DNA of 64,000 bases. It comes from an uncultured Rhizobium sp. (GTDB lineage: Bacteria > Pseudomonadota > Alphaproteobacteria > Rickettsiales > UBA1997). Both the position numbers and the translations under genes were made by a program. Position 1 is the stretch's first letter. Each line of letters starts with the position of its first letter. Shown one piece after another: positions 11,166 to 56,731 of this stretch. Under the pieces are notes generated by a model. That model was not told the origin of the DNA. It searched no databases and was given only the letters and a program-made list of their open reading frames with translations. The stretch lies in assembly GCA_964506725.1 (NCBI GenBank), contig CAZDLU010000002.1:44538-108537 (forward strand), read 5' to 3'.

Positions 11166-11171
11166 CGTCAC

Positions 11172-11255
11172 TCGTCATCCTTGACGCGAAGCGTCGAGTA
11201 TCTCGGGAGTTTAGTCTCATGAGATCCTCGGCCGCAATGCGGCCAAGGATGACGT
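11172..11255. repeat. Family E composite palindrome (CGTCATCCTTG...CAAGGATGACG)
   Basis: The outer arms cgtcatccttg and caaggatgacg enclose the inner hairpins acgcgaagcgt and gccgcaatgcggc. Related to the hairpin at 26354-26390. Confidence 0.7.
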
Positions 11256-12280: not shown

Positions 12281-12383
12281 AAGTGCTTAAGTGCTTTCGC
12301 GCTTCGCGCTAGTGCTTAGGTGCTTAAGTAGTTTTCAGTCTACTTAAGCACTAGCGCGTGAGCGCGTAAGCACCTAAGCACTT
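12281..12383. repeat. Family C octamer palindrome (GTGCTTAR variant, longest copy)
   Basis: aagtgcttaagtgctttcgcgcttcgcgctagtgcttaggtgcttaagtag / ctacttaagcactagcgcgtgagcgcgtaagcacctaagcactt. Confidence 0.8.
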
Positions 12384-12385
12384 AT

Positions 12386-13675
12386 TTAATTTACTTCTAG
12401 CAAACAAGCTCCACCTTGTCCGCCGCCGACGCATAAAGTCGCAAGACCGCGATTTTTACCACGTCTTTTTAATTCGCGCAAGAGATGAATTACAATTCTG
12501 GTTCCCGACATTCCAACCGGATGCCCCAGCGCCACGCCGCCACCATTGACGTTTAAAATATTTTCATCAATTTTTCCTAAAGCATTTACGCCAAAATGTT
12601 TTTGGCAAAATTCGTCAGAAGCAAAGGCGCGCGCGCAGCCAATTACTTGAGCAGCAAAGGCTTCGTTGATTTCAATTAATTCCATATCTTGCAAAGAAAG
12701 TCCTGACTTATCAAAAACTTTTTTCGAAGCAAAAACCGGACCAAGCCCCATTCTGCTTGGATCCAAGCCGGCATAAGCAAAATCTGACAAATATCCCAAA
12801 ACTTCCAAACCAAGTTCTTTGGCTTTCGATTCACGCATTACCACCGCAAAAGCTGCGCCGTCAGTGACTTGCGATGAATTTCCAACTGTAACAGTTCCGG
12901 TAACTTTTTCAAAATATGGTTTTAATTTTGCTAAATCTTCAATCTTTTGGCCTTTGCGGATTCCCTCATCCTCTTCCACCATTTTTGAATTTTTTTCATC
13001 GCCGTTAAAAACCGGAATTATTTCTTCCTTAAAAATTCCTTTCGCGGTTGCAGCCTCCGCGCGCTTGTGGCTTCTGAGTGCAAACTCGTCTTGCTCTTCG
13101 CGCGTAATTGAAAAATCTTTTGCGACATTTTCTGCGGTACAACCCATAATCAAACCGGAAATCGGATCAGTCAGACCTTGAACCAAGCCAACTACGGGCG
13201 CTAAATAATTAAAACGAAAAGTCGCAAGTGCCGCTAATTTTTCCCCTAAAGTTTTTGATTTAAATAATTTTTCAAAAAGCCCGGTCATTTTTTTGTTATA
13301 AAATAACGGAATATTGCTCATCGATTCTACGCCGCCAGCCACTATTATTTCAGCATCGCCATTAAGAATTTTTAAAGCCGCACTTGTTATTGCTTCCATT
13401 CCCGAAGCACAATTTCTATGCACAGTATAAGCCGGAATTTTTTCGGGTAATCCGGCCTTTAGAGCAATCACGCGCGCAATATTGGCGGCCTCTGCGGGCT
13501 GCGCCACATTACCGACAATCACTTCATCAATTTTTTCCGGATCAATTTTCGCGCGAATCACCACCTCACGCAAAATGCGGGCTCCCAAATCATGCGCTGT
13601 CAAATTCTTCAAAACCCCACCGGCCTTACCCATTGGCGATCTATAGCCGGCAATTATTGCGATTCTTTCTTTCAT
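12386..13675 (-). CDS. acetyl-CoA C-acyl/acetyltransferase (thiolase)
   Basis: VHRNCASGMEAI, NVNGGGVALGHPVGMSGTR and LCVGGGQGGACLLE. Confidence 0.92.
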   Translation of the reverse strand: MKERIAIIAGYRSPMGKAGGVLKNLTAHDLGARILREVVIRAKIDPEKIDEVIVGNVAQPAEAANIARVIALKAGLPEKIPAYTVHRNCASGMEAITSAALKILNGDAEIIVAGGVESMSNIPLFYNKKMTGLFEKLFKSKTLGEKLAALATFRFNYLAPVVGLVQGLTDPISGLIMGCTAENVAKDFSITREEQDEFALRSHKRAEAATAKGIFKEEIIPVFNGDEKNSKMVEEDEGIRKGQKIEDLAKLKPYFEKVTGTVTVGNSSQVTDGAAFAVVMRESKAKELGLEVLGYLSDFAYAGLDPSRMGLGPVFASKKVFDKSGLSLQDMELIEINEAFAAQVIGCARAFASDEFCQKHFGVNALGKIDENILNVNGGGVALGHPVGMSGTRIVIHLLRELKRRGKNRGLATLCVGGGQGGACLLEVN

Positions 13676-13746: not shown

Positions 13747-13831
13747 TGGATTGTTTCTGCGCTAGCGCTCCTCGCAATTACGAAAAATCATTCCCCGTCA
13801 TTGCGAGGAGCGCTAGCGACGAAGCAATCCA
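13747..13831. repeat. Family D palindrome (GCGCTAGCGCTCCTCGCAAT core)
   Basis: tggattgtttctgcgctagcgctcctcgcaattacg ... ccgtcattgcgaggagcgctagcgacgaagcaatcca. It creates the spurious TTG-start extension of ORF 13801. Confidence 0.75.
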
Positions 13832-15448: not shown

Positions 15449-16507
15449 ATGTTAGATTTTTTAGAAAATTCATCGCATTATCAACAAATAGCCTGGGCAA
15501 TAAAAATGTTTATCATAATTTTTATCTCCTTGGTTTTAAGCTATGTGGCAGGCCGCTTGGTTCGGAATTGCGAAAAGAAACTTTCACATAATAAAGCCAT
15601 TTGGGATGATTTATTGCTGCGCTCAATTCGTAAGCCCCTGATAAGCTTAATTTGGATTTTAGGAGTTGCGCTCGCCATCAATACAACAGGCCAGCATATT
15701 CGCGTTGATTTTTATAATTTTGTTTTAATATTTAAAAATCTCGGAATTATTTTTTGTATTGCCTGGTTTATTTGGCGAATTGTTGCCGAATATGAAAAAT
15801 ATTTAACTTCTGAAAAAAGCGACCATCTAGATGTTACAACAGTTGTTGCCATTACTAAATTACTTAAAATTGCCATCTTAATTACCACCGGATTAATGAT
15901 GTTGCAAAATTTCGGTGTCAATATTAACGGAATAATTGCTTTTGGTGGCATCGGTGGTATCGCCGTTGGATTTGCCGCTAAAGATTTACTGGCAAATTTT
16001 TTCGGAGCGTTGGTGATTTTTCTGGATCGACCATTTTCAGTAGGAGATTTTATTCGCTCCCCAGACCGCCAAATTGATGGCGCGGTACAATATATCAGCT
16101 GGCGCTTAACTCATATTTTAACGCCCGATAAAAGACTTTTATATATTCCAAATTCACTTTTTAGCACCATCATTATCGAAAATCTTTCGCGCACAATTAA
16201 CCGCCGCATTCACGAAGACGTAAGATTGCGTTATCAAGACATAAAAAAATCCGCAAAAATAATTGATGAATTGAAAGAATTTTTAACTAATCATAAGGAA
16301 ATAGACAAAACATTACCTATTACCGTGATTATTTCAAAACTTGATGAATATTGCGTAACGCTTGTAGTTGAGGCCTTCACCGGCAATATCTCTATTCCGG
16401 AATATAATGAAATCAAGCAGGAAATTTTGCTTAAAGTTGATGAGGTAATTTTAAAAAACGGCGCTGAAATTGCTTTGCCACGATCAGTGATAAATATTTT
16501 AGATTAA
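15449..16507 (+). CDS. mechanosensitive ion channel, MscS family
   Basis: Multi-TM N-terminus, then ANFFGALVIFLDRPFSVGDFI, which is the MscS beta-domain signature. Confidence 0.85.
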   Translation: MLDFLENSSHYQQIAWAIKMFIIIFISLVLSYVAGRLVRNCEKKLSHNKAIWDDLLLRSIRKPLISLIWILGVALAINTTGQHIRVDFYNFVLIFKNLGIIFCIAWFIWRIVAEYEKYLTSEKSDHLDVTTVVAITKLLKIAILITTGLMMLQNFGVNINGIIAFGGIGGIAVGFAAKDLLANFFGALVIFLDRPFSVGDFIRSPDRQIDGAVQYISWRLTHILTPDKRLLYIPNSLFSTIIIENLSRTINRRIHEDVRLRYQDIKKSAKIIDELKEFLTNHKEIDKTLPITVIISKLDEYCVTLVVEAFTGNISIPEYNEIKQEILLKVDEVILKNGAEIALPRSVINILD

Positions 16508-19500
16508 GAAATTATTTCAACAAATTCTCCTTCTTTTACCAATTCAATTTCTTCAGCATTACAAACATTTTTTAAATCTTCGCCAATTCTGGTTAAATCA
16601 ATTTCGGAATTAACCTTAATTTTTTTCACAATAGTTTTCATCGAAATATTTTTTTCCGATTTAAATTTACGCACCTCGAAAAGCACAGCCAGCGCGGCTT
16701 CGCCGATGTTGTAAGATTTCTGCTCGAATAAATAATTTTCTAATTTCGGCCAATTTCCGCGTGAATTTATTGATTTATTTTGCGCAAATTCTTCAGCAAA
16801 AATTGTTGCATAAATTTCTTCGCAGATATGCGGAATAAAAGGCGCGAAAAGTTTTAGAATTGTGTTTAAGCAAATTCTTAAAGTTAAAATTGCGCTTTGT
16901 TGTTTGGCGATAATTTCTTGTTTTTGCAACTCGCTCAACTCAACTCCCGCAAGCTTTTCCGCCGCAAGTCCGTAAGATCTAACTTTGCAAATTTCCAAAT
17001 AATTATCACAAAAATCTTTCCAGAAAAATTCTTCAATCGCTTCACGCGCACGTGCATATTCAAATTGCGCAAAACTTTCTGTAGCGCGTTTTACCGTTAA
17101 ATACAACTTCGATAAAATCCATAAGTCAGAGACTTCCGTAATGTCGTGCTTCGACAGGCTCAGCATGACATTACTGCTATTACCACTCAATTGTTTAATG
17201 TCACCCTGAGCCTGTCGAAGGGCGACATCACTCAGAGTTTCAAAATTCATCGAAGCAAATTTCGCCGCATTAAATAACTTCGTCACCAACTTCTGCCCAA
17301 TCTTAAAAACTTCCTCTGAATAAGCGGTATCCGCTCCCAAATGCGAAGTCGAAGCCCAATAACGCACAATGTCCGAGCCCTTCTCCTCAATGAGTGCAAC
17401 CGGAGTCACCACATTTCCTTTCGACTTACTCATTTTGGTTTTATCCGCCGCCAAACACCAACCTGAAATCATCAGATTTTTCCACGGAATACTAGGTTCT
17501 TCCCTCTCCTCTTGAGGGAGAGGGTTAGGGTGAGGGGTTGGTTTAGGCAAGCTGTGAAGATAAGCCTTAACAATCGTATAAAACGCCCAAGTACGAATAA
17601 TCTCGTGCGCCTGCGGCCTTAAGTCAGCAGGAAATAATTTATTATGGCGAGCGCGATCAAAGCTGATATCATTACTAATTCCTTTACTTGAAAGTTGCGG
17701 CGAAATCGACGAAGTCGCCCAGGTGTCCATGATGTCGGTTTCAGCCGTAACTTCATCACGCGAGTAACCGAGCGGCAAATCTACATTTGGATCACAGGGC
17801 AATTGCGAAACATCAGCCACTAAAATTTTTCCTTCTTCACCCACTCGCTTCGAATACCAAACCGGAAAATTCACGCCAAAAAATCTTTGGCGAGAAATAC
17901 ACCAATCCCACGATAAGCCGTCAATCCATTGTTCAATGCGCACCAACATATATTGCGGAAACCAATTACATTCCTGCGCTTTCTTTTTTAATTCCTCTTT
18001 TTTATCAAGAATTTTTATAAACCATTGCGGCACAACAAGAATCTCGATCGGCACGCCAGAACGCTCAGCACACTTCACCGCACGCGTAATTTTTTCCTGC
18101 TTAAGTAAAAGACTCGATCTTTCACCCTCCCCTTGAGGGAGGGTCGAACGCTCTGCGTTCGGGGAGGGGTCAGAAGAGTTCAAGTTTAAATAAATATCTT
18201 CCAACACCCCCGAAATATTTTTAAACACATCATTATTCCAAAATCTTAAAACTTTAAACCCAGCACTTTCCAAAAATTCCGTCCTTTTTTTATCATATTC
18301 CACAGCATCTTTTTCATTATGCTGCCCACCATCCAGCTCAATTACTAATTTCTTTTCAAAGCAAACAAAATCAACAATGTAATTTTCAATTGGTTGTTGT
18401 CTGCGGAATTTATAGCCATCTAGTTGTTTATTTTGTAGGTAATGCCATAAAAGTCCTTCGGCATTGGTTTGGTTATCTCTTAAATTTTGTGCATTTTCTA
18501 GAGTTTCTTGAGAGTAAAATCTTTTTGCTTTGAGTGTGTCTTGACCCCTCCCCGATTCGCTTACGCTCATCGACCCTCCCTCAAGGGGAGGGTGATTAGA
18601 TGGAGTGTTTTTTAAGGCTTCAATAATTATCTCCTTACCTTCCTTTAAAGTTTTTCCATTACCTTTATCATCGAATAAAATTTTGGCCTTCTCTATAAAA
18701 TTAGGAGCCATTAATTGACTATTATTCTGAGCATTGTCACAACCAATTTTAGTTATAGATTTCCAATCAAATCTACCATCCTTTCCTATAATAACACGCA
18801 GTTCTAAATCATACTTTTTCCACCATTTTATATCCGTCTCATCACCAAAAGTACAACACATCACCGCGCCCGTTCCTTTATCTAACTGCACTAAATCATC
18901 GGCAATAATTTTTACACGAACACCAAAAAGCGGCGTTACCGCAAATTTTCCCTGCAAATGTTTGTAACGTGAATCTTCCGGATGAACCATCACCGCAACG
19001 CAGGCCGGAAGTAGTTCCGGACGCGTTGTCATTATTTCAATTTTTTCTTCACTTCCTTCAACACCAAACAAAATATAATTCATGGTGCCTTCAACTTCCT
19101 TATCCACCAAATCCGCCTGCGCTAGAGCTGTGCGGTCTGAGATGTCCCAAAAAACCGGCTCGAATTTTTTTTCAACTAAACCTTTATTAAATAAATCAAC
19201 AAAAGAAGCTTGCGAAATTTTTTGTGATTCCGGAGAAATCGTTTGATATTTTTGTTCCCAATCTACAGATAAAGCGATTGAATTAAATAAAGCTTCAAAT
19301 TCTTTTTCCGCTTCATCTACTACTTCGCGACACTTGTTAACAAATGATCCGTGACCGTTTTCATGTTCGTAAACTCCGGCTTTTTTTCCGATAATTTTTT
19401 CTACCAAACGCTCAGTAGGCAAACCATTATCATCAAAGCCCATTGGATAAAAAACATCCTTACCGATCATTCTTTGAAAACGCGCCACAAAATCAGCCTG

Positions 19501-19683
19501 CGTATAAGAAAAAACGTGACCCATGTGCAGAAGTCCTGAAACTGTGGGAGGTGGCGTATCTATTACAAAAGTTTGGTCTTTCGGTAAATCATTTTTCCAA
19601 GCAAAAATCTTTTCATCCTGCCAATATTTTTGCCATTTTTTTTCGATTAGTTTTGTATCTAGTCTGTCTGGTAATTTTGTCAT
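16504..19683 (-). CDS. valS: valine--tRNA ligase (archaeal/Rickettsia type) with three in-frame repeat-derived insertions
   Basis: PPPTVSGLLHMGHVFSY (HIGH region), KMSKSKGNV (KMSKS) and TFGDETD (editing domain). 1059 aa in a single uninterrupted frame. Confidence 0.93.
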   Translation of the reverse strand: MTKLPDRLDTKLIEKKWQKYWQDEKIFAWKNDLPKDQTFVIDTPPPTVSGLLHMGHVFSYTQADFVARFQRMIGKDVFYPMGFDDNGLPTERLVEKIIGKKAGVYEHENGHGSFVNKCREVVDEAEKEFEALFNSIALSVDWEQKYQTISPESQKISQASFVDLFNKGLVEKKFEPVFWDISDRTALAQADLVDKEVEGTMNYILFGVEGSEEKIEIMTTRPELLPACVAVMVHPEDSRYKHLQGKFAVTPLFGVRVKIIADDLVQLDKGTGAVMCCTFGDETDIKWWKKYDLELRVIIGKDGRFDWKSITKIGCDNAQNNSQLMAPNFIEKAKILFDDKGNGKTLKEGKEIIIEALKNTPSNHPPLEGGSMSVSESGRGQDTLKAKRFYSQETLENAQNLRDNQTNAEGLLWHYLQNKQLDGYKFRRQQPIENYIVDFVCFEKKLVIELDGGQHNEKDAVEYDKKRTEFLESAGFKVLRFWNNDVFKNISGVLEDIYLNLNSSDPSPNAERSTLPQGEGERSSLLLKQEKITRAVKCAERSGVPIEILVVPQWFIKILDKKEELKKKAQECNWFPQYMLVRIEQWIDGLSWDWCISRQRFFGVNFPVWYSKRVGEEGKILVADVSQLPCDPNVDLPLGYSRDEVTAETDIMDTWATSSISPQLSSKGISNDISFDRARHNKLFPADLRPQAHEIIRTWAFYTIVKAYLHSLPKPTPHPNPLPQEEREEPSIPWKNLMISGWCLAADKTKMSKSKGNVVTPVALIEEKGSDIVRYWASTSHLGADTAYSEEVFKIGQKLVTKLFNAAKFASMNFETLSDVALRQAQGDIKQLSGNSSNVMLSLSKHDITEVSDLWILSKLYLTVKRATESFAQFEYARAREAIEEFFWKDFCDNYLEICKVRSYGLAAEKLAGVELSELQKQEIIAKQQSAILTLRICLNTILKLFAPFIPHICEEIYATIFAEEFAQNKSINSRGNWPKLENYLFEQKSYNIGEAALAVLFEVRKFKSEKNISMKTIVKKIKVNSEIDLTRIGEDLKNVCNAEEIELVKEGEFVEIIS
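17141..17228. repeat. Family A palindromic element, in-frame inside valS
   Basis: atgtcgtgcttcgacaggctcagcatgacatt ... aatgtcaccctgagcctgtcgaagggcgacat. Encodes ALRQAQGDIKQLSGNSSNVMLSLSKHDI. Confidence 0.85.
17500..17538. repeat. Family B half-element, in-frame inside valS
   Basis: ttccctctcctcttgagggagagggttagggtgaggggt. Encodes PKPTPHPNPLPQEEREEPS. Matches the arms of the intergenic copies at 27655 and 56612. Confidence 0.8.
18122..18595 (-). mobile_element. DUF559 (Vsr-like PD-(D/E)xK) endonuclease cassette with terminal inverted repeats, in-frame inside valS
   Basis: The outer TIR TCACCCTCCCCTTGAGGGAGGGTCGA (18122-18147) has its exact reverse complement at 18570-18595. The inner 12-mers at 18161-18172 and 18542-18553 are also inverted. 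474 nt. Encodes LLWHYL..YKFRRQQPIENYIVDFVCFEKKLVIELDGGQH..VLRFWNNDV. Confidence 0.8.
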
Positions 19684-19703: not shown

Positions 19704-19790
19704 AAAAAATCTCGTCATGCTGAGCTTGTCGAAGCATTGTGGAGCCGAACTCATGAATGCTTCGACAAGCTCAGCATGACGAGATTTTTT
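19704..19790. repeat. Family A palindromic element
   Basis: aaaaaatctcgtcatgctgagcttgtcgaagcat ... atgcttcgacaagctcagcatgacgagatttttt. It fills the gap between the bamB stop and the valS start. Confidence 0.9.
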
Positions 19791-21180
19791 ATTTCACCTC
19801 AAGCAAATCCACCACCCATTTTCCCATCGAATGCAAATAAATTTTTCCATTCACAACCACCGGACTATGATGAGTTTTGCTTTTAGTTTTATAAATTTTT
19901 TCAATTTTACCGTCAAAAGGTGATGCCATCAACACATCGCCGGCAACGCTTGAAATCACAAGCTTGTCACCCGCCATCACTACTCCCGCATAAATAATTT
20001 TCGTCTGCGGTTTTTTATCATTTTTATAATTAGGCAATTGCGAAATCCATTTTATGCCGCCGGTTTTTTTATAAACCGCGAGCAATTTATCATCATTATT
20101 AATCACATATAAAAACTCTCCCGCAGCCCAGAAATCAACGATCCCGGCAATTTCTTTTTTCCAAATATAATTACCGTTTTTAACATTAATCGCCATCATC
20201 AAACCACCATTACCAATCGCATAAATTACATCATCTTTTACCAAAGGTGTCGCATCAATATCATTCAAATAAAAATCAGAACTAGTAGCTTTACTTAAAT
20301 TCAAATCCTGTGACCACAAGGCTTCGCCGGTCTTTTTATCAACGCCGTAAATTTCACCGGAAGAATAAGTTGCAATCACCAAATTTTTATAAATTACCGG
20401 ATTGGCTGCGCCAAAAATTGCCGTTGGGCGCGTAACTCCGGCCTGCATCCAGCGCAAATTACCATTTGCCGCGTCAAGTGCGTAAAGCTTGTTATCATTA
20501 GTTGTAACATAAACCGAATTTTCATCGGCAATCGGTGCTGAAACCGGAATCGCCGAAATATCTTTTGTCCAAATTATCTCACCATTATTTGCCTTTGCCG
20601 CCACGATTCTACTGCTTCCGGCAATTGCAAAAATTTTATCATCACCACCTCCGTCATGCTGGGCTTGTCGAAGCATCGACTCATTTTTTTGCAAAAAAAT
20701 CTTCGGCGTTTGATAATTTTTTAAAAACTGACTTGGAAATAAACGCTTCTTAAAAATTCTTTTATCTTGTTTTATATCATAAGCAATTAAATGCCCGGAA
20801 GCGTTCAAAATAAAGGCTTTATCACCATCAAAAATTGGAGTAAAAACAAAACGATCATTAAAATTTCCGCTATAAAAATTCCAGGTAACAGCCGATTTTT
20901 TTAATGCAATTTCTCCGGATTTTTTATGCGAAAAATCCTTAGCAAAATTTTCAATACGCTGATTTTCATAAGCCACCGATCCGCTCCACAAGCTGTTTTC
21001 TACTTGTTTTGGTAGTTTAATTTCAACTTTGGCTAAATCTTCATCAACTTTAATTTTTTCAACAGCAGCAAAAGCCGAAACAGCTTTTGTCTTGTCATAT
21101 TTTTCATCTTCAGCACAAGAAACAAGTAAAAACACAACGGAAAATAAAACTGCGATGTCATGCTTAACCTGTCGAAACAT
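19789..21180 (-). CDS. bamB: outer membrane protein assembly factor BamB (PQQ-like beta-propeller lipoprotein)
   Basis: MFRQVKHDIAVLFSVVFLLVSC (lipobox). Repeated G.lyA.d...G...W blades such as NKLYALDAANGNLRW and GEIYGVDKKTGEALW. The start at 21180 lies inside a Family A repeat, and upstream in-frame ATGs also exist. Confidence 0.8.
   Translation of the reverse strand: MFRQVKHDIAVLFSVVFLLVSCAEDEKYDKTKAVSAFAAVEKIKVDEDLAKVEIKLPKQVENSLWSGSVAYENQRIENFAKDFSHKKSGEIALKKSAVTWNFYSGNFNDRFVFTPIFDGDKAFILNASGHLIAYDIKQDKRIFKKRLFPSQFLKNYQTPKIFLQKNESMLRQAQHDGGGDDKIFAIAGSSRIVAAKANNGEIIWTKDISAIPVSAPIADENSVYVTTNDNKLYALDAANGNLRWMQAGVTRPTAIFGAANPVIYKNLVIATYSSGEIYGVDKKTGEALWSQDLNLSKATSSDFYLNDIDATPLVKDDVIYAIGNGGLMMAINVKNGNYIWKKEIAGIVDFWAAGEFLYVINNDDKLLAVYKKTGGIKWISQLPNYKNDKKPQTKIIYAGVVMAGDKLVISSVAGDVLMASPFDGKIEKIYKTKSKTHHSPVVVNGKIYLHSMGKWVVDLLEVK
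20653..20680. repeat. Family A single hairpin unit, in-frame inside bamB
   Basis: gtcatgctgggcttgtcgaagcatcgac. Encodes ..ESMLRQAQHDGG.. within the propeller region. Confidence 0.8.
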
Positions 21181-21234
21181 GTGTTTGTACTTCGAGCTAA
21201 ACACATGCTTCGACAGGTTCAGCATGACATCGAG
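21153..21234. repeat. Family A palindromic element overlapping the bamB 5' end
   Basis: cgatgtcatgcttaacctgtcgaaacatgtgttt ... aaacacatgcttcgacaggttcagcatgacatcg. Confidence 0.85.
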
Positions 21235-21253
21235 TTTCTGTAACATAAATTTT

Positions 21254-21961
21254 TTATTTTTTTTCGTCAGCATTATCAACCTTATACCCCCTAGAAACCA
21301 CAATCTTCATGCCATCTTCTGCTCGCGACTTTAAATCCGGTGAAGCTTTTTTATCTTGAGCAATTTTTGTAAAAATTTCATAAGCATCTTTTAAATTTTC
21401 ATTTTGCAAAGCTAATGTCGCGCGTTGCTCGGCAATATAATTTTTTAATAAGCCACTATGCTTTTCAATTTTCAAAAGGCGTTCCGGTAAATCCTTATCT
21501 GCAGCATTTTCCGCCACCAAAATTCTAGCTAAAAGCAATCCTGATAAATCACGCACATATTCATTGCAAAGCCCGCAATCATTGACTTCTTGGTAAATTT
21601 TTAAAGCCTCATCTTTTTTTCCTTCACCTAAAATTATCGAAGCATATCGCAGGGAAGCGATAGACTTCACTCCCAGTGGCGCTGTCGCCGCACCAATAAT
21701 ATTTTTTAATTCTTCTTTAGCCTTTTCTTTTTCTCCGATTTGCTCATTAAAAATCGATTTATATAAAATAACCGAAAATTCTTCTTGTTTGTATTTTTGA
21801 TAAATATTGAAAACAAAATATCCTACTAGCCCAACAACTACAATAATCGCCAAGGTAGTAATATTTTTTCTTCTTTTACGAAAAAAACTTTTTAAAATAT
21901 CAAAACGCGCTTGCGATCTGGCTTGGTTGATAAGATTTAACATTTCATTATTATCGGTCAT
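21254..21961 (-). CDS. YfgM-like membrane-anchored TPR protein
   Basis: N-terminal basic segment plus one TM ([19 protein letters not shown]), then TPR-like helices. Position upstream of bamB matches the yfgM-bamB arrangement. Confidence 0.6.
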
Positions 21962-27121: not shown

Positions 27122-27207
27122 AAGTGCTCGGGTGCTCGGATGCTCGCGCTTCGCTGGTGCTCGGTTTTTTTACCTGAGCACTCGAGCACTTGAGCACTCG
27201 AGCACTT
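27122..27207. repeat. Family C octamer palindrome (GTGCTCGR variant)
   Basis: aagtgctcgggtgctcggatgctcgcgcttcgctggtgctcgg ... tgagcactcgagcacttgagcactcgagcactt. Confidence 0.8.
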
Positions 27208-27643
27208 ATTTCAACAAATTATTTATAGCAAGCAACGCAATCGAATAGCCACTAATTCCAAGCCCGCAGATCACACCATCAACCACTTCCGACATGTAAG
27301 AATGATGACGAAATTCTTCGCGTTTGAAAATATTGGAAATGTGCAATTCGATCTTTGGTTTGGTAAAAATTTCTAAAGCATCGCGAATGGCTACAGACGT
27401 ATGGGTGTAGGCCGCAGCATTAATTATAATGCCATCAAATTTTTCCAAAGAATTTTGAATTATTTCCACAATTTCATGTTCGCTATTTGATTGCACAAAT
27501 TCAAAAGCCAGATTTAATTCACGCGCCACGGCTTCGCAATCTTTCTCAGCTTTTTCCAAAGAAAATTCGCCATAAATACTTTTGTCGCGCTTGTGCAACA
27601 TATTTAAATTCGGGCCGTTGATTATTAGAATATGTTTTTTCAT
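27206..27643 (-). CDS. aroQ: type II 3-dehydroquinate dehydratase
   Basis: ILIINGPNLNML..R....YG, NAAAYTHTSVAIRDA and ELHISNI..RE.FRHHS. Confidence 0.93.
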   Translation of the reverse strand: MKKHILIINGPNLNMLHKRDKSIYGEFSLEKAEKDCEAVARELNLAFEFVQSNSEHEIVEIIQNSLEKFDGIIINAAAYTHTSVAIRDALEIFTKPKIELHISNIFKREEFRHHSYMSEVVDGVICGLGISGYSIALLAINNLLK

Positions 27644-27654
27644 AAAAACTATTT

Positions 27655-27744
27655 ACCCCTCACCCTAACCCTCTCCCGCAAGGGGAGAGGGGAACACTCG
27701 GAGAATTCCCTATCCCCCTGAGGGAGAGGGTTAGGGAGAGGGGT
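27655..27744. repeat. Family B palindromic element (CCCTCTCCC-n4-GGGAGAGGG hairpins)
   Basis: acccctcaccctaaccctctcccgcaaggggagagg ... ccccctgagggagagggttagggagaggggt. The 22-nt lead-in atttacccctcaccctaaccct is identical at 56611. Confidence 0.85.
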
Positions 27745-27749
27745 TGTTG

Positions 27750-28629: not shown

Positions 28630-28714
28630 CTCTGTGTCTTGCTGAGCTTGTGGTAGATTGTGTGTGTACTCATATGCAATAATCATGCTTCGACAGGCTC
28701 AGCATGACTATGAG
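28630..28714. repeat. Family A palindromic element with a degenerate left arm
   Basis: The right arm tcatgcttcgacaggctcagcatgactatgag is intact. The left arm ctctgtgtcttgctgagcttgtggtag is decayed. Ends 29 nt upstream of the tkt ATG. Confidence 0.7.
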
Positions 28715-28743
28715 TTCTACTACAAATTCCTAATTTCTAAAAA

Positions 28744-30840
28744 ATGAAAAGAGACGAACAAACTAAAGAAATGGCAAATTGCGTGCGTTTTTTGGCAATT
28801 GATGCCGTTGAGCGCGCTAATTCCGGGCATCCGGGCATGGTGATGGGAATTGCCGATGTGGCGACTGTTTTATTTAGTGAGTTTCTAAAATTTGACCCGA
28901 AAAATCCAAAATGGTTAGACCGCGACCGCTTTATTTTATCAGCCGGACACGGTTCGATGTTGCTTTACGCCCTGCTCTATTTAACCGGTTACAAGGATAT
29001 TGATATTAATGATTTAAAAGATTTTCGTCAGCTAAATGCTAAATGCGCCGGGCATCCGGAATTTGGGCATTTAGATGGTATTGAAACTACCACCGGCCCA
29101 CTGGGGCAAGGTCTTGCAAATGCCGTTGGTATGGCTTTAGCTGAAAAAATGCTCTCTGCACGTGTCGGCAAAGATTTAATTAATCACAAAACTTATTGTT
29201 TGGTAGGAGACGGCTGTTTGATGGAAGGCATTTCACAAGAAGCAATTTCAATTGCCGGACATTTAGCTTTAAATAATTTAATTGTTTTGTGGGACAATAA
29301 TTCAATTTCAATTGACGGCAAAACTTCGCTGACGACTTCGGAAAACATGAAGATGCGTTTTGAAGCTTGTAATTTCGAAGTAATACAAATTGACGGACAT
29401 GATTTTGACGCGATCAGAAAAGCTTTGACGAAAGCCCAAAATTCAACAAAACCGGTGATGATTGATTGCAAAACAACAATTGCTTTCGGATCACCGAATA
29501 AAGCCGGTTCGCAAAAATCGCACGGCTCGCCGCTTGGCGCTGACGAAGTTACCAAAGTTCGTGAAAAATTAAATTGGAAGCATGCGCCATTTATTCTTCC
29601 CGAAGATTTAGAAGAAGCCTGGGCACAGGCCGGAAAAAGATCGCGCAAAGTTTCTAAAGAATGGGAAGAGAAGTTTGAAAAATTAGACAGCGATTTAAAA
29701 AGAATTTTGAAAAAAGAATTGCCGCAAGATTTTCAAAAAAAATTAGAGCTTTTCAAACAAAAAACTTTTTTAGGCAAGCCGAAGCAAGCTACACGTAAAT
29801 CATCACATGATGTTTTGGAATTTTTAACTGCTGAATTAAAAGAATTGATCGGTGGTTCTGCCGACTTAACCGAATCAGTTTTAACCAAAACTTCACATAC
29901 AAAAATTATTGATAAGGATAATTTTTCCGGAAGTTACATTCATTACGGAGTTAGGGAACACGCTATGGCAGCCATGATGAACGGCATCGCCCTTCACGGC
30001 GGCTTCATTCCTTACGGCGGAACATTTTTAGTTTTTTCGGATTATATGAAGCCGGCTGTTAGGTTGTCAGCTTTGATGAAACAGCAAGTGATTTATATTT
30101 TTACTCACGACTCAATCGGTCTTGGTGAAGACGGCCCAACACACCAGCCAATCGAGCATTTGGCGGCACTTCGCGCAATTCCGAACTTAAATGTTTTCAG
30201 ACCGGCTGATGCACAAGAAACAATTGATAGTTTTGAATTGGCTTTGAAGTCAGATAAAACGCCATCGGCCATTGTTTTAACCAGACAAAATGTGCCTTTC
30301 CTGCGTAGCGAATATAAAAAAGAAGAATGTTCTTCACTACGCGGCGGCTATATAATTTCCAACACGGCGCTGGAAATTGAACCCGATGTTGTAATTATTG
30401 CAACCGGTTCAGAAGTTGGAATCGCCATCGAAACCAAAGAAAAATTACACAAGCACGGACTCGCTGTTCGCGTGGTTTCAATGCCTTGTTTTGAAATTTT
30501 TGATAAGCAGGAACAATCTTATAAAAATAGTGTTTTAGGTGCGGATAATATTTTAAAAGCCGGCATCGAAGCTGCGATTTCGCAAGGTTGGCACCAATAT
30601 ATCGGCAAAGACGGGGTTTTCATCGGCATGTCTGATTTCGGCGCTTCGGGCAAGGCCGAAGATTTATACAAGCATTTCAAAATCACTGCTGATGACGCAG
30701 CCGCACGCATTGCTACTGAGTTAAAAACTCGCCGCCGCAATGCTAAAAAATTCATGGATAAGGATGATATTCTTGATGAGCTTGATAAATATAAAGAGCA
30801 AATCAAAAAGGATATTGATGATGAGGATGACGAAGATTAG
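28744..30840 (+). CDS. tkt: transketolase with a ~37-aa acidic C-terminal extension
   Basis: RFLAIDAVERANSGHPG, GHGSMLLY, GPLGQGLANAVGMA, GDGCLMEG and THDSIGLGEDGPTHQP. Confidence 0.95.
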   Translation: MKRDEQTKEMANCVRFLAIDAVERANSGHPGMVMGIADVATVLFSEFLKFDPKNPKWLDRDRFILSAGHGSMLLYALLYLTGYKDIDINDLKDFRQLNAKCAGHPEFGHLDGIETTTGPLGQGLANAVGMALAEKMLSARVGKDLINHKTYCLVGDGCLMEGISQEAISIAGHLALNNLIVLWDNNSISIDGKTSLTTSENMKMRFEACNFEVIQIDGHDFDAIRKALTKAQNSTKPVMIDCKTTIAFGSPNKAGSQKSHGSPLGADEVTKVREKLNWKHAPFILPEDLEEAWAQAGKRSRKVSKEWEEKFEKLDSDLKRILKKELPQDFQKKLELFKQKTFLGKPKQATRKSSHDVLEFLTAELKELIGGSADLTESVLTKTSHTKIIDKDNFSGSYIHYGVREHAMAAMMNGIALHGGFIPYGGTFLVFSDYMKPAVRLSALMKQQVIYIFTHDSIGLGEDGPTHQPIEHLAALRAIPNLNVFRPADAQETIDSFELALKSDKTPSAIVLTRQNVPFLRSEYKKEECSSLRGGYIISNTALEIEPDVVIIATGSEVGIAIETKEKLHKHGLAVRVVSMPCFEIFDKQEQSYKNSVLGADNILKAGIEAAISQGWHQYIGKDGVFIGMSDFGASGKAEDLYKHFKITADDAAARIATELKTRRRNAKKFMDKDDILDELDKYKEQIKKDIDDEDDED

Positions 30841-30859
30841 GGATTTTTTAAATTCCACA

Positions 30860-30945
30860 CCCACAATCATACTGAGCTTGTCGAAGCATGTGGGTACAAT
30901 CCGGTGTTTAAACACATGCTTCGACAAGCTCAGCATGATTGTGGG
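30860..30945. repeat. Family A palindromic element
   Basis: cccacaatcatactgagcttgtcgaagcatgtggg ... aaacacatgcttcgacaagctcagcatgattgtggg. Confidence 0.9.
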
Positions 30946-31900
30946 CGTTATTTTTTTTCTCCTCCTCACCAGCTGCTCAAGTCCCCAACCTTACTATCAA
31001 GGCCCTAAATCAGATCATTTCAATGGCATAAATTTCACTTCGGAAATCAAAACGCTCAATAGTTTCGACAAAATCAAATCACTCTTCCTTATAAAAAAAT
31101 CTTGGGACGAAGAAGAAATTTATGCCAAACCCAAAAACCACGAATTCGCTGAAATAAAGAATGCCCGTGTAACCTTCATCGGACAAGCAACTTTGCTGAT
31201 TCAAACACCGCAAGCCAATATTTTAACCGATCCCACTTGGTCAAATGATATAACGCGCAAGAACCGCCCCGCTCTTGATTTTGATAGCTTGCCAAAGATT
31301 AACTATGTTTTGATCAGCAGTAATTTTAAATACCACATGGATATTGACACCATCAAAAAACTGCAAGAAAAATTTGCGCCAAAATTCATCACCGGCTTAG
31401 GAAATTGCTATCTTCTAAATAATGTAAAAAATCTAGGAATTACTTGTCTTGAACTGGACTGGAACCAAAAAATTACCTTACAAAATGAATTAAAGTTTTA
31501 TTTTCTTAAAGCTAAAAATTATGAGAATAAAACACTGTCTGGATCATTTGCTATCATAGCTCAAAACTTCAAAATTTATTTCGGCGGCGATGGCGGATAT
31601 GGTGATCACATGCGCCAAATTGGCCTTGATTACGGACCATTCGATTTGGCATTGCTTTCAATTGGCAATTATCAACCAAGATGGTTGTTTAAAGAAATTC
31701 ATATGAACCCTGAGGAAGCAGTAAAATCGCACATTGTTCTGCAATCAAAAAAATCAATCGCCATGAATTTTAATAGTTTTCATATCGGCAATGAAACTTA
31801 TTTAGAACCATTGATTGATTTGGAAGAAGCAAAAATAAAATATAATTTGCGCAAGGATGAATTTGTAGCGCCAAAATTTGGGGAAAGTTTTGAGTTTTAA
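30935..31900 (+). CDS. MBL-fold metallo-hydrolase lipoprotein
   Basis: MIVGVIFFLLLTSC (lipobox), VTFIGQATLLIQT and ILTDPTWS. The ATG lies inside the right arm of a Family A repeat. The longer track ORF (30740) runs through the repeat and the end of tkt. Confidence 0.7.
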   Translation: MIVGVIFFLLLTSCSSPQPYYQGPKSDHFNGINFTSEIKTLNSFDKIKSLFLIKKSWDEEEIYAKPKNHEFAEIKNARVTFIGQATLLIQTPQANILTDPTWSNDITRKNRPALDFDSLPKINYVLISSNFKYHMDIDTIKKLQEKFAPKFITGLGNCYLLNNVKNLGITCLELDWNQKITLQNELKFYFLKAKNYENKTLSGSFAIIAQNFKIYFGGDGGYGDHMRQIGLDYGPFDLALLSIGNYQPRWLFKEIHMNPEEAVKSHIVLQSKKSIAMNFNSFHIGNETYLEPLIDLEEAKIKYNLRKDEFVAPKFGESFEF

Positions 31901-39761: not shown

Positions 39762-39800
39762 CTCATAGCCATGCTTCGACAGGCTCAGCATGACTATGAG
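39762..39800. repeat. Family A single hairpin unit
   Basis: ctcatagccatgcttcgacaggctcagcatgactatgag. Ends 21 nt upstream of the yajQ ATG and causes the spurious 5' extension of ORF 39750. Confidence 0.85.
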
Positions 39801-43797: not shown

Positions 43798-44385
43798 ATG
43801 AAAAAAATCATTTCCGCAATTGCTATTGCAGCACTTTCTCTTACTTTTTCTTGTGCTAAAAAAACTAAACCTGTTACTAATCCGAAATTAACCGGCGATT
43901 TATCTGATTTACCGGAATGGGTAATTGATCCTTCAGTGTCTGATGGCGTTGGCGCTGTTGGTATTGCACAACCTTCTCGCGGTGGAATCAAATTCCAAAT
44001 TCCGCAAGCTGAGCTTGATGCCAAAGCTAATATTGCGGCAACAATTCAATCGGAAATAAGTCGCGTAACCAAGAATTCTCTAAGATCGGCGAAAGTTAAT
44101 GAAAATGACGATGTTGAAGAATTTTTTGCGCAAGCTACTAAAGACGTAGTAAAAAATTTCCCGCTTTCCGGCGTAAAAAGATTGCATATTTATCAAGGCA
44201 AAGATGGTACGCTTTACATACACATGGCTTTAACCGATCAAGATTATTCTAAATTTTTGGAAAAAAGCCAAAAAACAATGGCCGCGAAAATTGCTAAATC
44301 AAATTTAGGCCGCGAAAATATTGATAAAAGCCAAGCTGCCAATAAGGAATTATTCGAAGAGCTTGATAAAGAAAGAAAAGAATAA
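43798..44385 (+). CDS. LPP20-family lipoprotein
   Basis: LSLTFSCA lipobox, then PEWVIDPS...GAVGIAQPS.GG...Q...AELDAKANIAATIQSEIS, an LPP20-like motif. Confidence 0.7.
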   Translation: MKKIISAIAIAALSLTFSCAKKTKPVTNPKLTGDLSDLPEWVIDPSVSDGVGAVGIAQPSRGGIKFQIPQAELDAKANIAATIQSEISRVTKNSLRSAKVNENDDVEEFFAQATKDVVKNFPLSGVKRLHIYQGKDGTLYIHMALTDQDYSKFLEKSQKTMAAKIAKSNLGRENIDKSQAANKELFEELDKERKE

Positions 44386-44555
44386 TGAAAAAAATATTTT
44401 TAATTACTTGTTTATTTTTGGCTTCTTGCGAATCTTTTTTTGAAGAAGAACAAAAAGCCACAATCAGGTCAAACAGCGCATCGGAGCGCATAAATTCCAC
44501 TGCAAAAAATAGTGAAGGAGTTTTTAGGGAAGTTGATGAGCAGAGTAAAAAATAA
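44385..44555 (+). CDS. small hypothetical lipoprotein (56 aa, below the ORF-track cutoff)
   Basis: MKKIFLITCLFLASCESFF... has an LASC lipobox. Its ATG overlaps the upstream stop (TAATG). Confidence 0.45.
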   Translation: MKKIFLITCLFLASCESFFEEEQKATIRSNSASERINSTAKNSEGVFREVDEQSKK

Positions 44556-44556
44556 A

Positions 44557-44639
44557 CTCAATGTCATGCTGAGCCTGTCGAAGCATGATTCAAGCCTGTA
44601 CCTAAAATCATGCTTCGACAGGCTCAGCATGACATTGAG
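44557..44639. repeat. Family A palindromic element (best-preserved copy)
   Basis: ctcaatgtcatgctgagcctgtcgaagcatga ... atcatgcttcgacaggctcagcatgacattgag. Confidence 0.92.
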
Positions 44640-45582
44640 TTTGATTCTTTTTTTTATCCTTACCGCTTGCGCAAGCAATAATAATGCACAAATACCAAGC
44701 TGGTATGTTTCTCCTGCGGCCAATAATTCAAATAATCTTTACGGCGTTGGAGAAGGTTTTACTTTAGAAGAAGCTACAAAATCCGCTCTTGCCGACATGG
44801 CTTCGCGCCTTATGATTACAGTATCAGCCGAAACTACTTCTCTTAGCGAATCAAATAATATCAGCGTTAATGAAGAATTTAAAAAAAGCATAAAAGCCAA
44901 TATTGAAAAAATAAGTTTTACTAATTTTGAAGTAAGTAAAAGTCAAAAAATCGGCCAAAATTTTTACACAGAAGTTACTGTAAAGCGCGACGAATTTATA
45001 AAAAGCCAAAAAGAAAATCATGAATTTTTACAAGAAAAAATTTCCAATTTAACAAAAAATTCTGCAACGAATCCTGTAGAAAAAAGAAATAATTTAGTAA
45101 AAGTTTTAGATTTGGCAAAACAAGACGAGCTTTCAAGCCGCATATTATCTGGACTTAAGGCCGATGTTAATTTAAAGCAAACATTGAAAAATATTGCCAC
45201 TTGGCAAAATCAACTTGATAAAATTAATGATAAAATTGAATTTTATTTTGAAATAAATTCTAAGCCCGAAATCGCCAAAGTAATTCGCAGCGCCCTAAAT
45301 AAAGAAAAAATAAAAATTGCCACAAGCCACGAAGTCTCACAAAATCAGGTTGTAATCCGTATAACGTCAGACGTTATAGCAAATAAAATTTATGAAGCCT
45401 ACATCACAAAATTAAAAATCGATTTTGAAAACTTGTCCGGAAGTAAAATCATCGCAAGCAATGCAATTGAAGTCACGGGAAGCTCAAGCATTGACGAAAA
45501 AGAATCTTACCGCGCGGCTATTACAGCGCTTACAGGCAAAATTAAAGAAGAAGGAATTTTGTCGATCTTGGGAATAAATTAA
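44629..45582 (+). CDS. LPP20-domain lipoprotein
   Basis: MTLSLILFFILTAC (lipobox), then PSWYVSP...LYGVGEG.TLEEATKSALADMASRL. The ATG lies inside the right arm of a Family A repeat. Confidence 0.65.
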   Translation: MTLSLILFFILTACASNNNAQIPSWYVSPAANNSNNLYGVGEGFTLEEATKSALADMASRLMITVSAETTSLSESNNISVNEEFKKSIKANIEKISFTNFEVSKSQKIGQNFYTEVTVKRDEFIKSQKENHEFLQEKISNLTKNSATNPVEKRNNLVKVLDLAKQDELSSRILSGLKADVNLKQTLKNIATWQNQLDKINDKIEFYFEINSKPEIAKVIRSALNKEKIKIATSHEVSQNQVVIRITSDVIANKIYEAYITKLKIDFENLSGSKIIASNAIEVTGSSSIDEKESYRAAITALTGKIKEEGILSILGIN

Positions 45583-49342: not shown

Positions 49343-49352
49343 TACTTAAGCT

Positions 49353-49442
49353 AACTTCGGTGTCATACTGAGCCTGTCGAAGCATGCGTTTAGACTAAGA
49401 GTAAAACACATGCTTCGACAGGCTCAGTATGACACCGAAGTT
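49353..49442. repeat. Family A palindromic element
   Basis: aacttcggtgtcatactgagcctgtcgaagcatgcgttt ... aaacacatgcttcgacaggctcagtatgacaccgaagtt. Ends 14 nt upstream of the nadK ATG. Confidence 0.9.
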
Positions 49443-49456
49443 ATATATTATAAACT

Positions 49457-56571: not shown

Positions 56572-56611
56572 TTTACTTGTTGTTGATTTTAGTGGATGTT
56601 TTAAAGTATTA

Positions 56612-56695
56612 TTTACCCCTCACCCTAACCCTATCCCTCAAGGGGAGAGGGAACATTCCGAGCTTTTCCCTCTCCCCTTGAGGGAGAGGGGTAAA
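56612..56695. repeat. Family B palindromic element
   Basis: tttacccctcaccctaaccctatccctcaaggggagagg ... ccctctccccttgagggagaggggtaaa. Lies in the divergent hflK/mrp intergenic region. Confidence 0.85.
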
Positions 56696-56731
56696 TAACA
56701 AACTCTAAATTATAATTTTACTCTTTTTAAA

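Follow-up and report, generated by a model that had tools for sequence, protein, structure and literature searches.

Does an interspersed hairpin repeat supply start codons to the lipoprotein genes in which it sits, or do those genes still begin at their old positions? The question is raised by a stretch of 64,000 nucleotides (hereafter the window) from contig CAZDLU010000002.1 (positions 44,538 to 108,537; GenBank assembly GCA_964506725.1, an uncultured Rhizobium sp. placed by GTDB in the Rickettsiales, UBA1997). Copies of a repeat that we call Family A lie here at or near gene 5' ends, that at 44557 in a gene for an LPP20-like lipoprotein. The best explanation, and to our minds a likely one, is that Family A consists of short non-autonomous palindromic repeats of the kind represented by repetitive extragenic palindromic (REP) sequences, their doublets (REPINs) and the Rickettsia palindromic elements (RPEs), that the copies seen are those which survived at harmless sites and that the interrupted genes use upstream starts.

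The repeat, its copies and its relatives

The window has a G+C content of 36.9%. The 27-nt Family A unit GTCATGCTGAGCCTGTCGAAGCATGAC was matched eight times with up to three mismatches, against no match in 100 dinucleotide shuffles, and the 15-nt core CTGAGCYTGTCGAAG, at the same tolerance, identifies 16 half-units, where chance predicts none, confined to nine loci. These are the nine copies of the original prediction; the core scan yields no other place. The unit is, as had been described, an 8-bp stem (GTCATGCT/AGCATGAC) closing an 11-nt loop, with GAGCYTGTCGA as the loop invariant, and it occurs singly (two loci, 20653 and 39762) or as an inverted pair (seven loci). Forward-reverse doublets occupy six of the nine loci (19704, 21153, 28630, 30860, 44557 and 49353), and 17141 holds a reverse-forward doublet in which the second unit has a different stem (GTCACCC/GGGCGAC). 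The basic element thus measures about 90-100 nt, with two inverted 27-nt hairpin units, a spacer of 12-22 nt between them and, flanking the pair, the element's own arms of about 20 nt, each an A-rich run followed by CTCNNNGTCATG. The single units are probably products of deletion between the CATGC/GCATG stem repeats.

RNA folding gives about -61 to -72 kcal/mol for five of the six forward-reverse doublets, -40.9 kcal/mol for 28630 and -56.7 kcal/mol for 17141, with z-scores that span -6 to -17. The arms of a doublet are 80% alike within a locus versus 67% between loci (45 nt; permutation p = 0.00015). The covariation of the two arms claimed for each copy is correct for the CT/AG, TT/AA and AACC pairings but not for the 28630 doublet, which is discordant (TT versus AG) and has a degenerate left unit. 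The nine loci are listed here without strand; L123 is a contig of a sister genome, described below.

17138..17231, reverse-forward doublet; in frame inside valS, reading …VALRQAQGDIKQLSGNSSNVMLSLSKHD…; fold -56.7 kcal/mol, z -9.7; common to sister contig L123
19704..19790, forward-reverse doublet; bamB-valS spacer; perfect 35-nt arms; fold -63.7 kcal/mol, z -13.5
20653..20679, single unit; in frame inside bamB, reading …NESMLRQAQHDGGG…; no stable fold alone
21147..21238, forward-reverse doublet; bamB signal peptide, at the charged/hydrophobic junction; open frame KLDVMLNLSKHVFSSKYKHMFRQVKHDIAV; fold -60.6 kcal/mol
28630..28716, doublet with degenerate left unit; divergent pssA/tkt spacer, 27 nt upstream of the tkt ATG (28744); fold -40.9 kcal/mol
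30857..30948, forward-reverse doublet; between the tkt stop (30840) and the hydrophobic core of a metallo-beta-lactamase (MBL)-fold lipoprotein; frame TPTIILSLSKHVGTIRCLNTCFDKLSMIVG; fold -61.3 kcal/mol
39762..39800, single unit; yajQ 5' untranslated region; own 7-bp outer stem CTCATAG/CTATGAG; fold -16.9 kcal/mol, z -4.9
44547..44649, forward-reverse doublet; core palindrome 44553-44643; 44-nt arms 93% complementary; fold -68.4 kcal/mol, z -16
49352..49443, forward-reverse doublet; spacer between a SpoU-methylase gene and nadK; 40-nt arms 98% complementary; fold -72.3 kcal/mol, z -17

The neighbours identified with Pfam are valS (16504..19683, minus strand), bamB (19789..21303, minus strand), a YfgM-like TPR_21 gene, pssA, tkt, the MBL-fold gene, yajQ, the LPP20-like gene and nadK.

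Two copies, the 17141 doublet and the 20653 unit, are read in frame within valS and bamB, points that were absent from the original prediction. In an alignment with Thermus thermophilus ValRS (1GAX), residues 815-844 of the window valS product stand opposite chain residues 594-598, and the repeat insert is absent there. bamB reads …SMLRQAQHDGGG… through its unit; the 15-aa insert is present only in the window protein and its 80%-identical sister protein and is absent from 14 other BamB orthologues. In the sister valS (L123 5860-5890) the second unit of the doublet carries 24 extra nucleotides that hold another core, VMLS[SACPELVEG]SKHD; lying within the loop of the older unit, they are a nested insertion or a slipped duplication that followed the species split.

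The closest named relatives of the window proteins are 'Rickettsiales bacterium' and 'Alphaproteobacteria bacterium RIFCSPHIGHO2_02_FULL_40_34'. We compared the window with contigs L121 and L123 of the sister genome GCA_031972755.1, which has about 78-83% DNA identity to it, and with more distant relatives (L122 and L244-L248) that keep gene order at about 55-61% protein identity. The sister genome shares the N-terminal doublet and the internal unit of bamB, the valS doublet and the tkt-MBL doublet, and its contigs carry ten further half-units in 13 kb. It lacks the copy upstream of tkt (the L121 site is empty, with about 120 nt missing) and carries additional copies within hscA, in frame, and at the N-terminal end of a lipoprotein, lipoX; the window orthologues of both are repeat-free. 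Family A is absent from all six distant relatives. The 44547 doublet is missing in L122, L244, L245 and L246; L247, L248 and L272 have no copy at the bamB signal-peptide site and read MKKSA…/MKKLSALFLVIILISAC; the nadK junction in relatives is 23 nt long or overlapping, and repeat-free; and the yajQ start ATGCCAAGTTT is conserved in four relatives that do not have the unit.

Shared copies have also changed. Compared with the window, the bamB doublet in L123 has lost 2 nt in the spacer and gained 5 nt past the right arm, and in L121 the tkt-MBL copy differs in its flanks, has arms of the CT/AG type and carries an additional tandem repeat; the long open reading frame (ORF) remains open in both. 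The tandem repeat, at the 5' end of the L121 MBL gene (2830-2900), comprises three units (GTAACATCGAGTTTGGGTTTT) of some 21 nt each that stem from the doublet's right outer arm; they lie in frame between the repeat and the lipobox and make the signal-peptide region about 20 residues longer. The original prediction held that the copies are not bounded by direct target duplications, and here it was right: none is visible at any comparison of empty and filled sites, and no target-site duplication (TA or ACT) is consistent across the empty/filled pairs of tkt, hscA, nadK and lipoX.

The core hairpin itself is far more widespread. A 19-mer, TGCTGAGCYTGTCGAAGCA, occurs at at least 120 loci in species-representative genomes (596 Gb, both strands), where we estimate about nine chance matches; the matches listed include Sphingomonadales, Hymenobacter, Chloroflexota, Nitrospirota, Turneriella and gamma-, beta- and deltaproteobacteria. 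A 17-mer search of IMG/VR placed the core in at least 120 viral contigs. Among the matches listed, the genome loci hold 59 forward-reverse and 23 reverse-forward pairs (82 of 102 unit pairs within 90 nt are inverted doublets) and the viral loci 20 and 11 (31 of 55 inverted). The two units of one doublet often have unlike stems, for example GTGC/GCAC versus GCCC/GGGC.

Covariation of the stem was examined in 90 partner units that the search pattern had left free, with 500 shuffles as the control. In the 5-bp stem 89% of cells pair, compared with 74% after shuffling, and there are 84 double-sided changes, compared with 30; none of the 500 shuffles reaches the observed number, and pairing collapses once the partner is slid by one to three columns. 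Given the covarying stem and the constant loop, what is conserved is therefore a small hairpin in which the 11-nt loop is fixed and the stem free. A conserved 15-nt core, a covarying stem and a typical arrangement as inverted doublets are all found in the cross-phylum CTGAGCYTGTCGAAG hairpin repeats, a far wider superfamily to which the Family A unit belongs. Gene callers make dozens of 'hypothetical proteins' of 30-85 aa out of the repeat, and a profile of the signal-peptide segment that it encodes matches only tiny hypothetical ORFs. We found no paper in the searchable literature with the core sequence or its typical encoded peptides. For a repeat of this kind the core hairpin is unusually widely conserved, with neither an Rfam family nor a searchable description.

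The conserved core and the covariation suggest how such an element could spread: its folded single strand would be recognised by a conserved, putative protein. In this compact genome copies persist at harmless places, either in tiny spacers or in coding DNA where the single stop-free frame of the element is in phase, as in surface loops of ValRS, BamB and HscA and at the charged/hydrophobic junctions of signal peptides. If a dedicated protein does recognise the core hairpin, it would represent a new system of mobile DNA or RNA processing, one that could be sought by comparative genomics. We hold only tentatively to the wider proposal that Family A is the AT-rich branch of an undescribed hairpin superfamily spanning phyla and viruses, with the loop as the recognition site of a candidate conserved enzyme (the counterpart of the REP-associated tyrosine transposase, RAYT) and a frame that is routinely translated as a spacer in signal peptides and as loops in essential proteins.

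RPEs were reportedly described by Ogata et al. in 2000. Family A resembles them in several ways: the palindromic repeats are short, the alphaproteobacterial genome is small and AT-rich, and the insertions fall in frame in housekeeping genes (including one for a tRNA synthetase) that stay intact, here valS, bamB and hscA, and also at protein N-termini, with copies inherited by sister species. It differs in that its host is not Rickettsia and its core is common to distant phyla. Our sequence comparison covered RPE-4 and RPE-6, which have been classed as CGTC-type REPs and encode peptides (SFLRKQES…/WIPWSNHGMT; PMC3733652) unrelated to those of Family A (VMLSLSKHD/MLRQAQHD/CFDRLSMT). No description of RPEs recurrently inserted at the charged/hydrophobic junction of signal peptides was found in the literature searched. 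Family A is a second clear case, outside Rickettsia, of in-frame palindromic repeats tolerated in essential genes.

REPs fall into GTAG and CGTC superfamilies (Di Nocera et al., 2013), and RAYT-mobilised REPIN doublets occur in E. coli and Pseudomonas (PMC3733652). The likeness to Family A lies in an imperfectly palindromic unit of 20-40 nt (27 nt here), found mostly as inverted doublets that form a long hairpin (seven of the nine loci here), and in occasional in-frame intragenic copies. REPs lie mainly in convergent or co-directional spacers near stops (PMC3733652), as do the relatives of Family A in the census described below, although five of the nine window loci are within reading frames. 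REP copies at ORF N-termini are suspected often to be extragenic, and the Family A peptides are not in the table of intragenic REPs (PMC3733652). The REP loop is 4-5 nt on a stem of 8-9 bp (PMC3733652), in contrast to the 11-nt loop of Family A. Family A also has no unpaired GTAG/CGTC tag or CCA tail, (C/T/A)GTC being located within its 8-bp stem, and its core is conserved across phyla, whereas REP sequences are usually species-specific. We know of no RAYT for Family A.

MITEs, or miniature inverted-repeat transposable elements, are likewise non-coding elements, of about 100-150 nt, with terminal inverted repeats and subfamilies with defined ends; they may be transcribed together with neighbouring genes, which they can alter. 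Family A, however, is without a consistent target-site duplication and its interior consists of two hairpins with conserved loops, not of insertion-sequence ends. To our knowledge there is no parent insertion sequence with Family A ends.

An Rfam scan of the whole window gave no family at its gathering score. The only model to pick up the 44557 doublet is RF02901 (AaHKsRNA41, Aggregatibacter actinomycetemcomitans small RNA 41; 53.4 bits, E 1e-11, below the gathering score of 97), the consensus of which holds the same doublet, GCUGAGCUUGCCGAAGCAU … AUGGUUCGGCAAGCUCAGC. RF02901 differs in being a single-locus RNA-seq transcript to which the hairpin part alone matches, and the paper behind it makes no mention of repeats. 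From its alignment with window positions 44556-44709, this Rfam family was built around a copy of the interspersed doublet, and AaHKsRNA41 may be a transcript that contains a repeat and not a small RNA gene in its own right.

Position relative to genes

Six copies had been said to lie within 30 nt of a start codon or to overlap one. The distances hold, with repeat edges 13-27 nt from the starts of valS, tkt, yajQ and nadK, but the elements are equally near the upstream stops (0-29 nt). Nearness to starts is unspecific because the elements nearly fill spacers that in relatives are 0-30 nt long. The 19704..19790 doublet, for instance, fills its spacer, abutting the bamB stop and ending 20 nt ahead of the valS ATG (19683), and the 49352..49443 doublet begins 9 nt past the upstream stop and ends 13 nt ahead of the nadK ATG (49457). 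An in-frame stop precedes the ATG by 9 nt in valS, by 6 nt in nadK and at a like distance in tkt (6-9 nt for the three), so the repeats before these genes, that at 19704 included, are untranslated. In yajQ the conserved start MPSFD is at 39822, 22 nt past the unit, and the Pfam DUF520 profile begins at residue 26 of the ORF.

A census of 59 related elements was made in AT-rich metagenome relatives, with crude calls of ORFs of at least 100 aa. Convergent spacers hold 22 elements, co-directional spacers 19 and divergent spacers 4, while 6 are inside ORFs and 8 could not be assigned; the excess of convergent over divergent positions (22 versus 4) has a binomial p of 0.0005. In co-directional spacers the median gap is 131 nt to the upstream stop and 123 nt to the downstream start, and in-frame 5'-terminal elements are rare (3 of 59). 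This proxy census thus favours the 3' ends of genes and shows no excess at starts, the distribution that the original prediction had itself named as contrary to the preference for 5' ends that it proposed. The high share of copies within signal peptides in the window may reflect its very short spacers.

Such a bias also invites the idea that position reflects function rather than tolerance, the hairpins being kept by selection as 3'-end stabilisers, terminators or attenuators. We regard this as possible but doubtful. The folds are very stable, the bias to convergent and co-directional spacers is strong, REPs have such roles in E. coli (PMC3733652), and the Aggregatibacter transcript RF02901 contains the same doublet, so elements of this type are transcribed somewhere. 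In the bamB-valS spacer, moreover, four lineages each hold a palindromic repeat from a different family, and the hscA-lipoX spacer holds two different palindromic repeats. Nevertheless, many sites are empty in close relatives with nothing in their place, the in-frame copies in valS, bamB and hscA are unable to terminate transcription, and roughly 30% of doublets have arms that disagree at the variable positions. We prefer survival of the repeats at harmless sites.

The repeats of the bamB-valS spacer are at 19704-19790 in the window, 3261-3378 in L123 and 5342-5438 in L247 and L248. The spacer is either a permissive hot spot or a place where a hairpin is needed after bamB.

Start codons of the interrupted lipoprotein genes

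As had been noted, repeats do extend over the 5' coding ends of lipoprotein genes. Arm ATGs are in frame with three of them, at 44629 (LPP20-like), 30935 (MBL) and 21180 (bamB). The candidate starts and the small ORF next to one of them are as follows, with the opening cost being the computed energy to expose positions -12 to +14 around a candidate ATG.

44536..44538, plus strand, upstream ATG of the LPP20-like gene (MSRVKNK…); overlaps GAT GAG near the end of the small ORF; opening cost 7.7 kcal/mol
44629..44631, plus strand, arm ATG of the LPP20-like gene; right arm, within a 38-bp stem; opening cost 50.1 kcal/mol
44385..44555, plus strand, small lipoprotein ORF of 56 aa (MKKIFLITCLFLASC…); between two LPP20-family genes, with its stop codon at the hairpin base
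21244..21246, minus strand, upstream in-frame ATG of bamB (MLQKLD…); 5 nt past the yfgM stop
21271-21273, minus strand, further in-frame ATG of bamB; start in the public annotation (494 aa)
30827..30829, plus strand, upstream in-frame ATG of the MBL-fold lipoprotein gene (MTKIRD…); overlaps the tkt end; opening cost 17.9 kcal/mol
30935-30937, plus strand, arm ATG of the MBL-fold lipoprotein gene; inside the repeat arm; opening cost 43.0 kcal/mol

It had been claimed that no ATG other than that in the arm is compatible with a normal signal peptide. This does not hold, since all three genes have in-frame upstream ATGs followed by Lys/Arg-rich residues and by no intervening stop. In the LPP20-like lipoprotein the 44547..44649 doublet separates MSRVKN from the hydrophobic core LILFFILTAC, in frame with both, and its single open frame reads KLNVMLSLSKHDSSLYLKSCFDRLSMTLSL. 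In L122, L244 and L246 the ATG of the LPP20-like gene overlaps the last Asp-Glu codons of the small upstream ORF (GAT GAG TAA or, with GAA in two relatives, GAT GAA TAA); in the window, ATG 44536 lies over the Asp-Glu codons GAT GAG, four codons before the small ORF stop, with no stop before the lipobox. Position 44536 is probably the ancestral and still-used start. The small ORF was recovered by a lipobox scan, is kept in L122 and is annotated as a 54-aa gene in L246.

Upstream candidates exist in the other two genes as well. The yfgM TAA is directly followed by ATG AAA AAA in relatives; the window bamB has one ATG 5 nt past the yfgM stop and another 27 nt further upstream that overlaps the yfgM end, and in the sister genome an ATG overlaps the stop. 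The MBL gene has ATGs in the tkt tail in both sisters with an Arg/Lys-rich continuation, and L121 reads MKMRRIRR…, open through the repeat.

Accessibility separates the two sets of candidates. Opening an arm ATG costs 36-50 kcal/mol, compared with 3.5-6 kcal/mol for accepted starts (valS, tkt, nadK, yajQ, LPP20a and the small ORF) and with 5.4-8.6 kcal/mol for the upstream ATGs of bamB and the LPP20-like gene; the MBL upstream ATG is intermediate at 17.9 kcal/mol. Within bamB the values are 8.6 and 5.4 kcal/mol for the two upstream ATGs versus 36.4 kcal/mol at arm ATG 21180. Because the starts of valS, tkt, nadK and yajQ have no Shine-Dalgarno motif, their leaders being A/U-rich, the choice of start should depend on an open leader structure. 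We think it probable that the three window lipoproteins start at the old upstream ATG and read through the repeat, with signal peptides of 44-52 aa.

Donation of a start codon, in which the insertion disabled the native start and initiation moved to the right-arm ATG to give MTLSLILFFILTAC, MIVGVIFFLLLTSC and MFRQVKHDIAV…, appears unlikely to us. It has attractions. The right-arm ATGs directly precede the hydrophobic core, as they also do in sister bamB (MTLRLLVVFLVFSC) and lipoX (MTLKLFLILILTNC), and they give signal peptides of normal length; the arm ATG of L123 lipoX is at most one codon from the native ATG of the repeat-free window orthologue MKQYFSLLILLLTSC; RNase III processing of the hairpin might leave a short-leader mRNA; and public gene calls begin at the arm ATG in the L121 MBL gene and in the LPP20-like gene (at 44629; 317 aa, MTLSLILFFILTAC, with a public protein 100% identical to that reading). 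Against these stand the burial of the arm ATGs in stems of 34-38 bp, with the opening costs given above, and the native-position ATGs, which are still upstream, in frame and open. Ribosomes on the upstream gene halt before or at the hairpin base and hence could not open the right arm. Two of the three arm-start peptides have no Lys or Arg near the N-terminus, unlike every repeat-free lipoprotein here. An in-frame ATG is in any case near-guaranteed in a doublet, as each unit has two CATG. Any other or mixed outcome seems very improbable. We had considered that the native ATG of sister lipoX was out of frame, a view replaced by the simpler reading that TTTATG, 30 nt past the hscA stop, is the native start. 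Public annotation is inconsistent on these genes, with the arm ATG chosen for the LPP20-like gene and an upstream ATG for bamB.

Upstream initiation would leave the repeat within the signal peptide. The doublet is exactly at the charged/hydrophobic junction in four lipoprotein genes of the two sisters (LPP20-like, bamB, MBL and lipoX), and one signal peptide of a non-lipoprotein, in a metagenome relative (L284), also carries a doublet there. Repeat-free lipoproteins of the window begin MKK or MKQ, and orthologues of the interrupted genes begin MNK or MKK. In the open frame the A-rich arm would code for Lys/Asn and the T-rich arm for Leu/Phe, and the insert would later be removed by cleavage, so that this may be among the rare coding sites at which an insertion of about 30 aa is harmless. 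A target preference for junctions of A- and T-runs is possible. Signal peptides are thus pointed to as a favoured safe harbour for insertions.

Several observations weigh against our account of upstream starts and a mobile repeat. Lipoprotein signal peptides of 44-52 aa are unusually long, and the arm ATGs would give an ordinary 14-22 aa. Conservation of ATG 44536 is also constrained by the overlapping small ORF, and cleavage of the long hairpin by RNase III could free an arm ATG. The continuity of the ORF through a repeat is weak evidence for upstream starts because one frame is open by construction in most doublets: usually exactly one in three frames is open, and the left-arm VMLSLSKH frame and the right-arm CFDRLSMT frame are coupled at the usual spacer length. 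A clean insertion boundary was not recovered in the empty/filled comparisons at tkt or hscA, and a Pfam scan of about 40 window ORFs revealed no mobilising enzyme or transposase. The census, finally, relies on crude ORF calls in metagenome relatives and not on the source genome.

Outer flanks and other repeats in the window

The outer flanks were said to be inverted and partly copy-specific, and a foldback or template switch was offered as the cause, by which each doublet would have arisen in place from one unit through an inverted duplication that copied host flank as well. A metagenome scan with a Family-A-specific 31-mer gave 66 loci, 46 of them AT-rich and several syntenic with the window at 66-78% identity. 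We compared the arms of 57 forward-reverse doublets, some of them in the window or the sister contigs and the rest at these loci. The flanks are inverted, and some are copy-specific, but the copy-specific part is small and confined to about 20 nt from the core. The arms share as consensus an A-rich run (positions -20 to -13) and, after it, CTC, a variable triplet and GTCATG; identity within doublets exceeds that between them solely at the triplet (0.68-0.70 versus 0.38-0.45) and at two stem positions, and past -20 nt it is at background. Both outer arms are also present on the single unit 39762 and on the hscA insert of L123. The mirrored flanks are mainly the element's own arms, because they follow a family-wide consensus and flank single units too.

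A foldback would explain mirrored, copy-specific flanks, the greater likeness of the arms within a doublet than between loci and the lack of direct target duplications, and the right flank of the bamB copy, ATCGCAGTTT, aligns with codons of the host hydrophobic core in relatives. The arms of a doublet also match each other (33-34/39) better than they match their sister-genome orthologues (28-30/39). Yet orthologous sister doublets differ in inner-flank subtype (CATGTGTT versus CATGATT), which replacement by another copy fits as well as arm correction does, and several Family A subfamilies that have long non-palindromic ends are met again at many loci; the mirrored variation fits subfamilies or replacement by other copies at least as well as local foldback. 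As mirrored identity ends about 20 nt from the core in a consensus stretch, identical arms flank intergenic, intragenic and single copies, and doublets dominate in every phylum sampled, a foldback of unit plus host flank is not needed and we consider it improbable. Equal signal-peptide length (21 aa once 72 nt are taken out) was entertained as proof that the AAACTCAAT/ATTGAGTTT flanks are host DNA and was rejected, because like arms flank unrelated copies.

Other repeats share the window with Family A. Inside valS (18122-18595, minus strand) there is a 474-nt in-frame module of 158 codons that is DUF559 endonuclease-like (PF04480, E 1e-42; PDB 3hrl). It is bounded by perfect 26-nt inverted repeats, TCACCCTCCCCTTGAGGGAGGGTCGA, and an inner 14-nt pair, each end being a hairpin of 'family B' type. 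The module is also in the sister valS and is absent from the ValRS of two relatives (883 and 898 aa) and from 1GAX. It resembles a nuclease gene that has hairpin repeats of its own on either side and sits within an essential gene; among the DUF559 papers listed, titles and abstracts hold no apparent account of this. A tie between this nuclease and Family A was rejected, with a DUF559 gene at one of the 240 superfamily loci listed, 5 kb away.

Repeat family B (CCCTCTCC…GGGAGAGGGTTAGGGTGAGGGGT) is found at 17500-17540, 18121-18161, 27650-27746 and 56610-56706, as two intergenic doublets and an in-frame valS insert, …PHPNPLPQEEREEP…, opposite a gap in T. thermophilus ValRS. CGTC-tagged palindromes of the kind described by Di Nocera et al. 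(CGTCATTGCGAGGAGCG…GCAATCCA; CGTCATCCTTGACG…CAAGGATGACG) are at 13747-13831, at about 11166-11250 and in the L247 bamB-valS spacer; they take spacers occupied by Family A in the sister genome, or vice versa. Tandem runs of AGCGCGT/AAGCACT-like heptamers follow several genes (7618-7652, 12353-12395 and 27177-27211), and a related run, STKHEARSTKHEARK, is in frame in the signal-peptide region of a relative's LPP20-like protein (P0019), a further instance of a repeat at the N-terminus of this protein. At 24-4582 there are four ORFs (269, 399, 478 and 311 aa) without a Pfam match, two of which, 844-2043 and 2074-3510, are tandem paralogues with DNA blocks that are 70-76% identical at a spacing of about 1.3 kb.

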